A stretch of 64,000 nt of DNA from Eledone cirrhosa (lineage: Eukaryota): the NCBI GenBank assembly GCA_964016885.1, contig OZ024741.1, positions 139,500,001-139,564,000 of the forward strand. Direction: 5' to 3'. Under the pieces are notes generated by a model that saw only the letters and a program-made list of their open reading frames with translations, was not told the origin of the DNA and did not search any database. Made by a program: the position numbers and the translations under genes. This document shows positions 33,911 to 47,563 of the stretch, piece after piece (position 1 is the stretch's first letter; each line of letters begins with the position of its first letter).

Positions 33911-34275
33911 ATAAAGAAAAAGAGATGAAATCGAAAATGCAACTGGAGTCTTATTTTTTTTTAAAAATATATATATTTATTTGGTTCCTTTACAGGTTTC
34001 GCAGTTCTTCTGCTTTTCAAAAGGTGAGTTGAGATGGAGGATCTGTAGTTTTTCTCAGATATGAGAAAAACCACAGACCCTCCATCTCAACTCACCTTTT
34101 GAAAAGCAGAAGAACTGCAAAAACCGGTAAAGGAACCAAATAAATATATATATTTAAAAAAAAAAATAAGACTCCAGTTGCATTTTCGATTTCATCTCTT
34201 TTTCTTTATACTTTCACTCGTGTAGGACACCGCGTTTATTTTTCATTTTGTAAAAGAAAAACCCTCACTTTCTAA
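33911..34275 (+). mobile_element. Asymmetric palindromic element (~148-bp arms + ~65-bp tail) with variant HHR
   Basis: Arms 33911-34057 and 34062-34210; near-identical to 47206-47563 in the opposite orientation. Confidence 0.85.
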
Positions 34276-34364
34276 TATATATATATATATATATATATAT
34301 ATATATATATATATATATATATATATATATATATATATATATATATATATATATATATATATAT

Positions 34365-34903
34365 AAGGATTAATAAGAATTAAAAACTAAAAGTTAAAGA
34401 TTTAAAATTAAGAGGTGCCTTTTTTCATATGTATATAAATATATATATATATATATATATATATATATATATATATATATATATATATATATATATATAT
34501 ATATATATATACATGTATATATATGTATATATATGTATATATATATATATATATATATATATATATATATATATATATATATGTATATATATATATATAT
34601 ATATATATATATATATATATATATATATATATATATATATATATATAAGGATTAATAATAATTAAAAACTAAAAGTTAAAGATTTAAAATTAAGAGGTGC
34701 GTTTTTTCATATGTATATAAATATATATATATATATATATATATATATATATATATATATATATATATATATATATATATGTGTATATATATGTGTATAT
34801 ATATATATATATATATATATATATATATATATATATATATATATGAAAACACGCACCTCTTAATTTTAAATCTTTAACTTTTAGTTTTTTATTCTTATTA
34901 ATC
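34365..34903. repeat. Three copies of a ~65-bp unit in (TA)n: two direct (34365, 34647), one inverted (34843-34903)
   Basis: AGGATTAATAAGAATTAAAAACTAAAAGTTAAAGATTTAAAATTAAGAGGTGC. Confidence 0.85.
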
Positions 34904-36125
34904 ATTTTTAATTGTAATACTCAATATTTGATAAGGTGAATGCTATATATTGGTGGGTCTTTCTTTAATGATTAAGATCCTACAATCACCAACGATACAT
35001 ACATGTAAGTATGCACACGAGCACACACACGCACACACACACACACACACACACACACACACACACACACACCACACACATATATATATATATATTTATA
35101 TATATATATGTATATATAGTATTAAGGATACTATTTATGGTTATGTATATACTAAAACTTTTTATAGTTATATATATTTTAAACCCTAAACAGTGAAAGA
35201 CAGTAATTTATTACTACCTTATTACCAGTAAGATAAATAGCTCAATGTAATAACATCAGTTGTTCTACAGAGCATTTATACAGAAATCACATGAATCAAA
35301 GTTCTGTTCAAACCATTTATTAGCTTACAATTGTTTCGTCGAAACCGAGGTTTGGAGTCTTCAGAGTAATTTTTCAATGATTGTTTACATACATGACCTC
35401 CTTTCCAACACAAGAGACATCCAGAAACATATGTATATATCGATGCACAGTGGGGTGACATCCATTATATTATTTTAGCATGGCAATTTACATTCAAAAA
35501 TTAAAATCGTATTAAAAGAAAATTAAAACAAAATTAAAGTTAAAATACAACATTGGCAGTTTACGAAGATAATGCAAGAGGATATGTTGAAGTAGTTAGT
35601 GTATGCAATAGTTACACGTGGGGCATGCACGTGTGTCTTATTTATATAAGATTAATGTGCGGCAAGGTGTTATATGCAATAAAGCACTTTAAGCGGGTAA
35701 TCAAGAGTATTATGGGGGTAGTATTGGTAAAGTATTTTTTTATGTATGATAAAGAAGCTTGTGTGCAGAGAAATATTAAAAAATGAGAAGCAAAATAATG
35801 TTATGGTGTTTGTATACATGTCTCTTGTGTTCGAAAGAAGGTCATGTATGTAAACAATCATTGAAAAATTGCTCCGAAGGAACCAAACCTCGGTTTGGAC
35901 GAAACAATTGTAAGTTAATAAATGGTTTGAACAGAACTTTGATTCATATGATTTTTATATATATATATATATATATATATATATATATATATATATATAT
36001 ATATATATATATATATATATATATATGTGTGTGTGTGTGTGTGTGTGTGCTCGTGTGAAAACTTACATTTATGTATCGTTGTTGATTGTAGGATCTTAAT
36101 CATTAAAGAAAGAGCCACCAATATA
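34904..36125 (-). mobile_element. PLE-like remnant with inverted terminal repeats, each carrying an HHR
   Basis: 34945-35420 is inverted relative to 35817-36125; HHRs at 35320-35369 (-) and 35869-35918 (+). Confidence 0.75.
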
Positions 36126-44063: not shown

Positions 44064-46642
44064 CCACCCGAGGAGGAAGTGTAAGAATTCTGGGAAAAGG
44101 TCTGGGCCGAAGAAAAAGGACATAATATACATGCCCCATTGATAGACAGACAAGGGAAAGATGCAGCTCACCTTGAAGAACACACGTGGGAAAATATAAC
44201 AGTTGAACAGATGCGTTTAACACTTAGAAAATCCGGATGGAAATCACCAGGGAAAGACAAAATGCAAAGTTTTTGGACAAATGCCTTCACAGAGTCTCAT
44301 GAGCTGTTAGCCCAACTTTACAATGAAATAGTTAAGGAGCCAGACAAGATACCATCATGGCTATTGAACGGCATTACATTCCTGCTTCCGAAGAATGATG
44401 AGACAAACAATCCCCAAAATTACAGACCGATAACTTGCTTGACCACAATGTATAAAATTTTAACATCAGTCCTAACTGAATATACATATGACCACCTGAT
44501 AACAAATGACCTATTTCCCATTGAGCAGAAAGGGTGTAAACGAGGCTCATATGGCTGTAAAGATCAGCCTTTGGTTAAAAAAATGATACTGGAAGATTGT
44601 CATAATAGACACAAAATTCTATCAATTGCTTGGATAGATTATAAGAAAGCATTCGATAGTTTGCCACACAGTTGGATTGAACAATGTTTAGAGATTTTCT
44701 AAATATCTCCCGTTGTCAGGAGGTTTTTGTCATTCAGTATGAAGAGATGTAAAACGACACTCCTTTGGAATAGTGAAACAAAATCACTGAATACTGGAGG
44801 AGTTAATATTAATTGTGGAATTTTTCAGGGTGACTCTTTATCACCGCTTTTATTCTGCATGGCACTTATACCATTAAGTAAAATGCTCAATGAAACAAAA
44901 CATGGATATAAAGTCTATGACAAAACCATTAATCACTTGTTCTACATGGATGACCTGAAACTATTTGCAAAAAATGATGAACAATTGCAAGGGCTATTAT
45001 CCACTGTGGAGCAGTTCAGTGATGACATTAAAATGGAGTTTGGACTAGATAAATGCGCCAAAGCAACGTTCTCCGGAGGAAAGCTACTGAAAAGTTCAGA
45101 CATTAATCTTGATCGGGGGAATGTGATAAGAGAACTTGATCAAGAGGAAACTTACAAATATCTAGGTGTTTGTGAAGGAGACGGAATCAAGCACTCGAGA
45201 ATGAGGGAAAGGATAAGGCAGGAATGTTACCGCAGAGTAAGAGCAATCTTAAGAACGGAATTGAATGCAAGGAATAGGATCGATGCCATAAACACGCTTG
45301 CCATACCAGTAGTAACCTACAGTTACAATGTCATCAACTGGTCAAGCACAGAGATCCGTAGGCTCGATACAAAAATCGAAAATTCTTAACCATGCACAGA
45401 AAGCATCACCCTAAGGTGATAAAAATATATCTCCCTAGCAAAGAAGGAGGACGTGGGTTAATCCAGTTAGACATTGCGTTGAAAACTGCAACAATTGGAT
45501 TATCTACATATCTAAGCAAATCACGTGATTGGATGATCAAACTCGTTTTGAAACACGAAATCATCAAAACATCATACTCCATTACAAAAGATGCACAAAG
45601 ATACAGTAATGGACTACACATTTCAGAAGTCCCATTTACTGCTGAAATGGAAAACACAGAAAAAGCAAAGCAGGTAAAAGTAACTGCAAAGAAAGAACTG
45701 CTCCAGAAACTGGCTAAGAAATGGCAAGAAAAGCCTCTGTATGGAAAATACCCAGAACGAGCTAACAATCCTGATGTTGACAAAACTTTAACCCATCAGT
45801 GGTTGGCATCCTCTGGACTGAAATTGGAGACTGAAGGACTTATTATATCAGCACAAGATCAGTGTCTGCCAACAAAAAATTACCAAGCCAACATAATAAA
45901 AAATGGATACAGCTCATTATGCCGTGTATGTAAAAAACAACCAGAGACCATTGACCATATAATTTCAATGTGCAGTCCTATAGCACCAACCGAATACCTA
46001 AACAGGCATGACAGAGCTGCACAATACATACATTGGATAATGTGTAAGCATTTTGACCTGCCCCATCAAAAGAATTGGTGGGAGCATCAACCACCTCCCA
46101 TACTTGAAAAAGATCACATCGCAATCTTGTGGAACTTTAGCATCTAAACAGACCGAAAAATAGATGCAAATAGACCTGATATAATATTGAAGGACTTTAA
46201 AAAGAGGGTATGCCTGCTAATTGATATGTCCGTTCCAATAGACAAGAATGTATCTATAAAAAAATTTGAAAAATTGAGCAAGTATAAAGACCTGGAGATA
46301 GAAATTGGAAAAATGTGGAAATTGAGAACTATAACAATACCAGTGGTTGTAGGCGCTCTAGGAATGATACCTAAGGGGTCTAATGATTACTCATCGCAAA
46401 TCCCAGGAAACCCGCGTATAGGAGAAATACAAAAGATAGTACTAATGGAAACTGCCCATATACTAAGGAAGATTCTGTCAATATAAGTACATCACAAGTA
46501 CATCACAAGTACATCACACTAAAGATGCATGTGTGAGTATGTATGTTCTTTCTTGAACATGGCGGACCTTGTTGTCTCTTGAGGTCACTGGTTGTGACTT
46601 TGTGATAACTCGTATGAACATAAAGCAAGAAAAATGCAGCTG
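44064..46642 (+). mobile_element. R4/Dong subfamily A copy, 5'-truncated, with stops and frameshifts
   Basis: ORFs 44139-44702, 44727-45389, 45392-46147, 46187-46486, near-identical to 5205-7256; (AAT)n tail 46643-46664. Confidence 0.93.
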
Positions 46643-47205
46643 TAATAATAATAATAATAATAATTGAAAATGAACATGATGTGATAACTGCAGTGACTGT
46701 AAAGAACGAATTTGGTGTAATGATTATGTTATGATATTAAGAAACAGTACGTTTGATTGCCGTTTCACATCAAGGTTCTTTAACAAAACTTAATGACATG
46801 GAAAACGAGGTTGTAGTCCTGAAATAGTCTGTAGAGAATGAAAGATGAAATATGAATGGTATGAATGAACACAAATAACATTGGTTATTTGGTTAGAAGA
46901 TAATTCAGATATAAAACAACATAAAAGTAATAAATTATATTTGGAAAAATAAAAGTGATACACTATACAAAACTGATAGATGCTTGTGAAGTTGTCCGAA
47001 AGTATCACCGTATATCTTCTTATACAACCTCTCTGCCTCTCTCAATATTTCTCTCTTTCTCTCTCTATCTCTCACTCTCTCTCCCTCTCTATGTATATAT
47101 ATATATATATATATATATATATATATATATATATATATATATATATATATATATATATATATATATATATATATATATATGTATATATATATATATATAT
47201 ATATA

Positions 47206-47563
47206 TTAAAAAGTGAGGTTTTTTTTACAAAATGAAAAATAACCGAGGTGTCCTACACGAGTGAAAGTATAAAGAAAAAGAGATGAAATCGAAAATGCAA
47301 CTGGAGTCTTATTTTTTTTTTAAATATATATATTTATTTGGTTCCTTTACCGGTTTCGCAGTTCTTCTGCTTTTCAAAAGGTGAGTTGAGATGGAGGGTC
47401 TGTGGTTTTTCTCACATGAGAAAAACCACAGACCCTCCATCTCAACTCACCTTTTGAAAAGCAGAAGAACTGCGAAACCGGTAAAGGAACCAAATAAATA
47501 TATATATTTAAAAAAAAAATAAGACTCCAGTTGCATTTTCGATTTCATCTCTTTTTCTTTATA
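47206..47563 (-). mobile_element. Perfect asymmetric palindromic element with variant HHR
   Basis: Arms 47268-47414 and 47417-47563, 2-nt loop, tail 47206-47267. Confidence 0.88.

Follow-up and report, generated by a model that had tools for sequence, protein, structure and literature searches.

Hairpin end-pieces of a Penelope-like element in Eledone cirrhosa share a fold point that may mark where the element RNA begins

Penelope-like elements (PLEs) with an endonuclease (EN+) leave insertions of a recognizable form, in which an inverted 5'-truncated copy is present and the tail occurs at one end only (PMC8557442, Fig. 2 legend). The insertion units described in PMC8557442 and PMC3846280 also show (TA)n targets, pseudo long terminal repeats (pLTRs) in partial tandem, a reverse transcriptase (RT) with a C-terminal GIY-YIG domain, and a CX2-5CxxC linker. 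How the inverted ends and the partial-tandem ends arise is an unsolved question according to PMC2377424 and PMC8557442. In this study, a window of 64,000 nucleotides (nt) from Eledone cirrhosa (assembly GCA_964016885.1, contig OZ024741.1, positions 139,500,001 to 139,564,000) was analysed, which contains two hairpin insertions, A (33911..34275, + strand) and B (47206..47563, - strand). With a head-to-head inverted copy and a tail on one side only, and placed in (TA)n, they match the pattern published for PLE insertions. They are identified as pLTR end-pieces of a Penelope-like retrotransposon that is autonomous and present in this genome, and that shares the other traits listed above. The tail here is 62-65 nt long, whereas the published tails are 30-40 nt. 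The parent also differs in having a separate 400-codon ORF1 that overlaps ORF2 in the -1 frame. Moreover, one particular base is the stopping point for about 60% of the tail-primed copies that extend to it, and at least 1,563 near-identical minimal hairpins result. The fold point which they share likely marks where the element RNA begins.

Another close system is PAc (Poseidon of Anolis carolinensis, PMC11167929). In this anole PLE, reverse transcription starts at two internal sites, which form the limits of the tail; both strands of the target undergo cutting and extension, and mutants of the hammerhead ribozyme leave insertion unaffected. The present element is similar in its two start sites delimiting the tail near the pLTR-ORF junction, its AT-rich targets, and a hammerhead upstream of the start sites which is uncut in the copied RNA. 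Unlike in PAc, both sites precede the ORF1 start, each with a short TA run matching the target, and genomic run-off at the RNA 5' end is not reported in the main text of PMC11167929. The element class, its architecture and the ribozyme variant are already known. A sharp, template-specific stop at a predicted start was not found in the open-access papers searched. The hairpins are real and ordinary in kind, with this one informative twist.

The ends of the copies were tabulated in a sample blind to the fold, i.e. the first 90 of 100 listed matches to the 26-nt tail, all in the first 43 Mb of contig C1. The tail pattern has 7,663 exact matches in the 3.0-Gb assembly, to which all genome-wide pattern counts refer, and its control has none. 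The 5' ends of the 90 copies are found from +147 to beyond -3,000, counted from the stop base. Among the 59 copies that reach this base, 36 end there (1 base upstream to 4 bases downstream), and the density of ends is 0.10 per nt at the stop base versus 0.003 downstream and 0.001 upstream. An adjacent inverted arm is present in 51 of the 90 copies, 23 of which fold near the stop base on both sides; non-inverted stubs also end at this base. Genome-wide, matches number 9,477 for the 24-mer immediately downstream of the stop base, 3,518 for the 24-mer immediately upstream and 1,563 for the fold pattern itself. The first-pass annotation had proposed a common fold point for these hairpins; the position is indeed far from random and piles up at one base, but the fold points of the 90 copies range over kilobases.

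Copies of a longer template behave in another way. The exact pLTR-ORF1 junction occurs 94 times in the genome. Of the first 30 such copies, 18 run past the base, the other 12 end before reaching it, and there is no case of a stop at the base itself (Fisher P 1.3e-6). Since these long, ORF-derived copies ignore the stop base, the stop is not a polymerase pause and behaves as the 5' end of one RNA class. A pause or a DNA deletion hot spot was rejected on the 0/18 long copies stopping there. A stochastic 'strong-stop jump' to the 3' pLTR is also disfavoured, as it predicts that about 60% of the long copies stop at +1. The ends at the stop base are very probably caused by run-off at the template's 5' end, and this 5' end is probably the start site of a promoter.

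Upstream of the stop, which falls on a pyrimidine-purine step, the full-length copy L129 has a TATA-like heptamer at -30, a CCAAT box at -79 and an E2F-like motif at -108. Of the 1,109 positions in the 3' region, 2 have both a TATA-like heptamer at -27 to -33 and a pyrimidine-purine step. Among 30 copies of the sister family B, 10 have their ends close to the homologous base, and a TATA-like box is found at -31/-32. Transcription of PLEs was reported to start in the pLTR (PMC2377424; PMC8557442).

Several points weigh against placing a transcription start here. The region is AT-rich, and a looser TATA pattern fits 73 of the 1,109 positions. Family B is homologous and so is not an independent test. 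The Penelope promoter of D. virilis is internal and TATA-less (PMC2377424), and a TATA promoter is therefore not a rule of the class. The putative start site is placed from genomic sequence, and the sample demands an exact 26-nt tail match, which favours young, tailed copies. In addition, an mRNA started at +1 and copied from the 3' pLTR should give some long copies ending at +1, but the count is 0/18.

Hairpins A and B are 95.3% identical, lie in opposite orientations and are both inserted within (TA)n, at the positions first described. No BLAST match was found among their four 1-kb flanks, which indicates separate insertions rather than a local duplication. Hairpin A, which is 87-88% identical to L129, consists of an inverted arm (33911-34057), a 4-nt spacer, a sense arm (34062-34210) and a tail (34211-34275). 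Hairpin B consists of a tail (47206-47267), a tail-bearing arm (47268-47414), a 2-nt spacer and a tail-less arm (47417-47563); its arms are 147 nt each and 100% complementary. The two elements share the fold location and the one-sided tail (65 nt in A and 62 nt in B). The fold point of B (47413..47418) corresponds to the first bases beyond the stop base of the parent, i.e. the putative transcription start. A third locus, 39718..40260 (+), had been taken for an older copy with another spacer; instead, it is an older and longer end-piece of the same parent (family A), with a short inverted arm (39723-39790) and without a complete tail. Its direct arm (39911-40260) begins about 180 nt upstream of the fold base and so passes the stop base. 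It keeps the TATA-box-like heptamer (40068..40074, +) 32 nt before 40100, the homologue of the stop base; the same element is at -30 in L129.

The opposite ends of the insertions are also fixed. In 86 of the 90 tail-selected copies the tail is followed by (TA)n. The insertions end at two TA-containing sites, at about +147 (site 1) and +211 (site 2) from the stop base, with one site used per end; the inverted arm starts at site 1 in 33 of 51 copies. Of 47 hairpins, 45 carry the tail on one side and not on the other, as do all five long copies with both arms visible. In sequencing-run contigs from three organisms, loose ends in (TA)n were seen at both sites (runs X1, X4 and X5) or at site 2 (X6). 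A separate observation concerns the T/A tract that lies some 95-108 nt past the stop base. Among the loci L001-L030, the boundary between T-run and A-run differs between the arms in 9 of 23 scorable hairpins, and in 8 of these 9 the total tract length is constant.

The suggested Penelope-like origin is confirmed, as the arm sequence is the pLTR of full-length copies with RT and GIY-YIG domains. Some tail-selected copies continue upstream through an untranslated 3' region of about 1 kb into the GIY-YIG domain. Ten long copies, selected for long open frames, have a frame of 771-791 codons for RT and GIY-YIG, and carry the same motif and tail in their pLTRs; in 4 of the 10, the arm sequence with the motif occurs at both ends as a partial-tandem pLTR. 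In the 5' pLTR copy, the tail continues into ORF1. The frames contain DKG, YLDD and a C-x4-C-x2-C linker. A Pfam search of a 775-aa frame gave RVT_1 at 296-441 (E 4.9e-6, below the gathering score) and GIY-YIG at 682-772 (E 3.7e-6). The linker that joins RT to EN fits CX2-5CxxC in the parent, as it does in 30 of the 30 relatives that were aligned, and this was described as a Neptune/Nematis trait (PMC8557442). The parent is therefore classified as an EN+ PLE with a Neptune/Nematis-type linker. Its closest protein relatives share 59-74% identity, and no named reference PLE protein was present among the 120 protein matches listed.

The 400-codon ORF1 precedes the RT frame in 4 of the 5 copies that include its start. 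The overlap of ORF1 and ORF2 is about 90 nt in the -1 frame (L129:4560-4600) and contains a run of six T followed by A, which fits a slippery-site rule and a possible programmed frameshift. One copy (L057) has a piece of RT coding sequence between the inverted arm and the pLTR end, which suggests a template switch or an internal deletion. PLE-like RT-EN genes were also found on contigs filed as bacterial metagenome-assembled genomes (L291-L306), which are probably host DNA in the bins. A splice-donor-like site (47481-47486, +) coincides in part with the position where the ribozyme is predicted to cut. An acceptor-like site (34222-34227, +) follows RT start site 1, near the beginning of the tail. 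If these bound a spliceosomal intron in the 5' UTR, site 1 would be present only in unspliced RNA, which would explain retention of the intron. Sequencing-run contigs over the pLTR-ORF1 junction show no joint at the putative intron, which counts neither for nor against it. Depth steps at this junction are not copy numbers, and run X1 is perhaps the assembly's own sample.

The hairpins are almost certainly a by-product of the PLE. The overall explanation, with a probability of roughly 0.6, is that they are promoter-less end-pieces made anew at each insertion by the joining of paired run-off complementary DNAs (cDNAs). The RT-endonuclease of the element would nick both strands of a (TA)n target, and one cDNA would begin at each of the two sites near the front of a pLTR-initiated RNA. 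Both cDNAs would run off the RNA 5' end, and their ends would join head to head. The hammerhead motif would have come along passively with the pLTR. Since each arm reaches some 70 nt past the predicted cut on its upstream side, the copied RNA was uncut at the hammerhead. A further proposal, for which the odds appear even, is that PLEs have two template classes. RNA from the pLTR promoter would give 'strong-stop'-like stubs and, pairwise, promoter-less hairpins, whereas full-length copies, which bear the promoter, would arise solely from a different template (read-through, tandem or circular RNA) on which there is never a stop at +1.

The hammerhead motif in hairpin B is as first described. The intact minimal type I motif is located at 47450..47487 (+), with a U3-A8 core (47454/47459), 4-bp stems I and II, a 6-nt palindromic stem III and a predicted cut after 47483. 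The same motif matches the descriptor in the tail-bearing arm (47344..47381, -). In hairpin A, the sense-arm copy (34095..34133, +) is damaged, as the first G of its GAAA box is lost and the descriptor does not match; in the inverted-arm copy (33987..34024, -), a single change disrupts the palindrome of stem III. Scanning the whole window with the descriptor gave three matches, all within these elements, and 20 dinucleotide shuffles gave one loose and no strict match. An Rfam scan gave generic miRNA-hairpin matches below gathering scores and no hammerhead among the 150 listed of 218 matches. The motif alone folds no better than its shuffles (z -1.2, -1.5). The motif has the G10.1-C11.1 pair, and in the +1 to +230 RNA of L129, stem II has a probability of 0.8. 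The idea of a ribozyme on both strands holds for the DNA, where the motif occurs on each strand; however, a transcript through the hairpin is predicted to lock the motif in a 147-bp duplex (-249 kcal/mol), in which the stem II probability is about 3e-18 versus 0.62 in a single arm.

Metazoan PLE minimal type I hammerheads, including the U3-A8 form of Schistosoma Cercyon (PMC4209133), share with this motif the core boxes, the compensated 3:8 pair, G10.1-C11.1, a short palindromic stem III suited to dimers, and the location in the pLTR. About 1,300 Schistosoma PLE motifs with U3-A8 in place of C3-G8 were reported in the same study, and the core is therefore not new. The present motif differs in its 4-bp stem II, the lack of an unpaired base between 9 and 10.1, and its palindrome of 6 nt. 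Among the RT relatives that carry a motif, the closest (L216, 49% identity) has these traits too, but with C3-G8. Public loci encoding RT relatives (96 in total) were scanned with a descriptor that left positions 3 and 8 free. The scan revealed 26 motifs, 24 of them on the ORF strand, and all were Watson-Crick at 3:8 (19 C-G, 5 U-A, 1 A-U and 1 G-C); ten rounds of shuffling gave one match, unpaired at 3:8. The fourth pair of stem I varies by subfamily as A-U, A.G or C-G (4, 28 and 120 motif copies, respectively). These two results identify the motif as a homologue of the PLE minimal hammerheads, in agreement with its initial description as such. Stem covariation in the alignment of the relatives was built in by the descriptor and was not counted as evidence.

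It is quite possible, at somewhat less than an even chance, that the motif is vestigial or dependent on a protein. It would then show little self-cleavage and be kept partly for a 5' splice site overlapping the cut or for a promoter element. For example, the A of core position 13 is replaced by C in 98 of the first 100 family B matches, and an older subfamily (954 matches) is mismatched at the fourth pair of stem II. A covariance model of the relatives' hammerheads, built from 23 of the 26 motifs (L242, L262 and L270 left out), failed to detect the motif (E up to 5). The core hexamer might double as a CHR cell-cycle promoter element, a candidate role that is weakened by the differing core letters of the relatives. 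Moreover, PLE minimal hammerheads were reported to cleave poorly (PMC4209133), and the anole hammerhead depends on protein and can be dispensed with for in-vitro insertion (PMC11167929). As evidence to the contrary, Watson-Crick pairing at 3:8 is kept in 26/26 motifs of the relatives, the fourth pair of stem I changes between subfamilies, and self-pairing of stem III as a dimer is predicted at -8.3 kcal/mol.

The joining of two cDNAs is likely, by analogy with the in-vitro precedent of the anole PLE, and is favoured about 2 to 1 over snap-back. In the latter, run-off would also occur; however, the second arm would be made by the cDNA folding on its own 3' end, or by self-priming on an antisense template. 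Such a route appears unlikely, although palindromic junctions can be read as self-priming, which on antisense templates was proposed for rotifer PLEs (PMC3846280). Loops of 2-4 nt at several junction types would also suit it. A further point in its favour, which weighs against two cDNAs, is the agreement of the arms at 182 of 187 diagnostic comparisons, together with 10 private symmetric variants in common. A single template or snap-back fits this agreement as well as two RNAs from one locus. On the other side, a snap-back copy cannot contain sequence missing from the first strand. In 15 of 51 copies it is the tail-less arm that extends further upstream, and in 16 of 51 the tailed one. There is thus no regular nesting of one arm within the other, although unequal arms of this kind could also come from deletions at the centres of the palindromes. 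The tail-less arm has an extra base in 4 of 11 junctions with a one-base centre, and one-base loops are the commonest junction in the genome-order fold list. The arms of L083 differ at a subfamily-diagnostic site, and this copy looks chimeric.

A further alternative is that the fixed end reflects a 5' end produced when the RNA is processed by some cleavage, or a different fixed boundary in the RNA, rather than a transcription start. The genomic data show only template ends, and the long copies do not stop at the base, both of which would agree with processing. This reading is nevertheless improbable. The predicted hammerhead cut is about 72 nt downstream, where few ends occur; a splice acceptor at this position would drop the first two bases, which many junctions retain; and the TATA-like and CCAAT boxes lie at standard distances.

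The first-pass annotation proposed that the hairpin itself is a non-autonomous element, which would be transcribed and which the PLE enzyme would then put back into the genome as a unit. Non-autonomous pLTR derivatives are already in print (bioRxiv 10.64898/2026.07.22.740005; PMC6765202), and MRC1 (PMC8557442) and the retrozymes (bioRxiv 10.64898/2026.07.22.740005) are such PLE derivatives. These resemble the hairpins in being short, ORF-less, pLTR-derived and, for the retrozymes, hammerhead-bearing. They differ in that they form head-to-tail repeats or make their own pLTRs, whereas the hairpins are head-to-head and without the upstream promoter boxes, and nothing indicates that one hairpin descends from another. 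A non-LTR retrozyme was rejected, since it needs head-to-tail units with same-strand hammerheads, and here the units are head-to-head with one sense motif per strand. A whole-unit similarity search gave 1,197 candidates; the 40 that were scored are all full length (96-100%), which would suit unit movement, as would at least 1,563 folds at the same place. The 40 were ranked by likeness to the query and are biased to one fold point, and were therefore not used to judge the fold.

Movement as a unit was examined in 47 hairpins, about 28 from the similarity-ranked search and the rest from the tail list, the fold list and the window. One duplicated pair was found (L015/L023), and L023 was left out. 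There are 17 junction types, which are not tied to subfamily, and the commonest occurs in four single-nucleotide haplotypes, two of them also present in full-length parents. Among 72 arm-specific variants, sharing on the same side (0.0078 of pairs) is hardly different from recurrence on the opposite side (0.0063), and no two loci among the 47 hairpins share two arm-specific variants. The diverse junctions, the varying fold points and the arm-specific variants, which are not inherited, leave the proposal without support. Moreover, the promoter boxes are missing, the duplex in a hairpin RNA would hide site 1 and the ribozyme, and the non-inverted stubs end at the same base. The model is largely refuted and has a very low probability; a small self-propagating subset may exist, given that only 47 loci were compared.

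Palindromes in long-read assemblies can be chimeric; however, an assembly artefact (fold-back reads) or a local duplication is practically excluded, as nearly all loci have unique flanks on both sides, the tails are one-sided, the arms have specific differences, and the fold points are tied to a biological landmark. None of the sequencing-run contigs aligned over the fold satisfied a 31-base bridging rule (best 33/30). A miniature inverted-repeat transposable element (DNA transposon derivative) was rejected because of the one-sided tail, the variable centre and the RT coded by the parent.

The window also contains other elements. A short hairpin with tail of sister family B is located at 39458..39625 (+), which is 98-100% identical to L198 and folds downstream of its hammerhead-like motif. 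Family B is highly amplified (10,418 core matches) despite the C at hammerhead position 13, and six listed opposite-strand core pairs, 110 bp apart, show the same fixed fold. A second minimal hammerhead at 40766-40803 (+), with a canonical C3-G8 core and a 4-nt palindrome, is the best match of the covariance model (28.2 bits, E 7e-5). It belongs to an element at about 40676-40886 between microsatellites, which looks like the end of a copy from yet another PLE family. Additional hairpins that extend on one side only, beside (TA)n, were observed at 13909-14239, 29254-29564, 35284-35954, 40951-41263, 41512-41844 and 52252-52375, and are probably ends of other PLE families. The region 54920-59000 has decayed RT-like frames (55496-56128 and 58469-58996) and a 260-nt inverted repeat, with no Pfam match; the frames resemble another PLE type. 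LINE-type retrotransposon fragments are located at 1034-4126, 5206-8370, 21262-23926 and 44085-46147 (Pfam Exo_endo_phos and RVT_1 on two frames), and a 205-nt inverted repeat (12111-12527) lies within a LINE-type fragment.

The well over a thousand near-perfect inverted repeats of 150 bp would give double-stranded RNA if transcribed, and might be substrates for silencing or editing. The stop is common to two families and separates tail-primed copies (36/59) from long copies (0/18), and the run-off model thus predicts capped RNA ends at this base. It also predicts that the product length in vitro is set by the RNA 5' end. If the two template classes exist, the head-to-head pLTR palindromes, the excess of solo ends and the regeneration of the pLTR would be explained. 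The genome would then record the transcription start to the base, and the starts of PLEs could be mapped from DNA alone.

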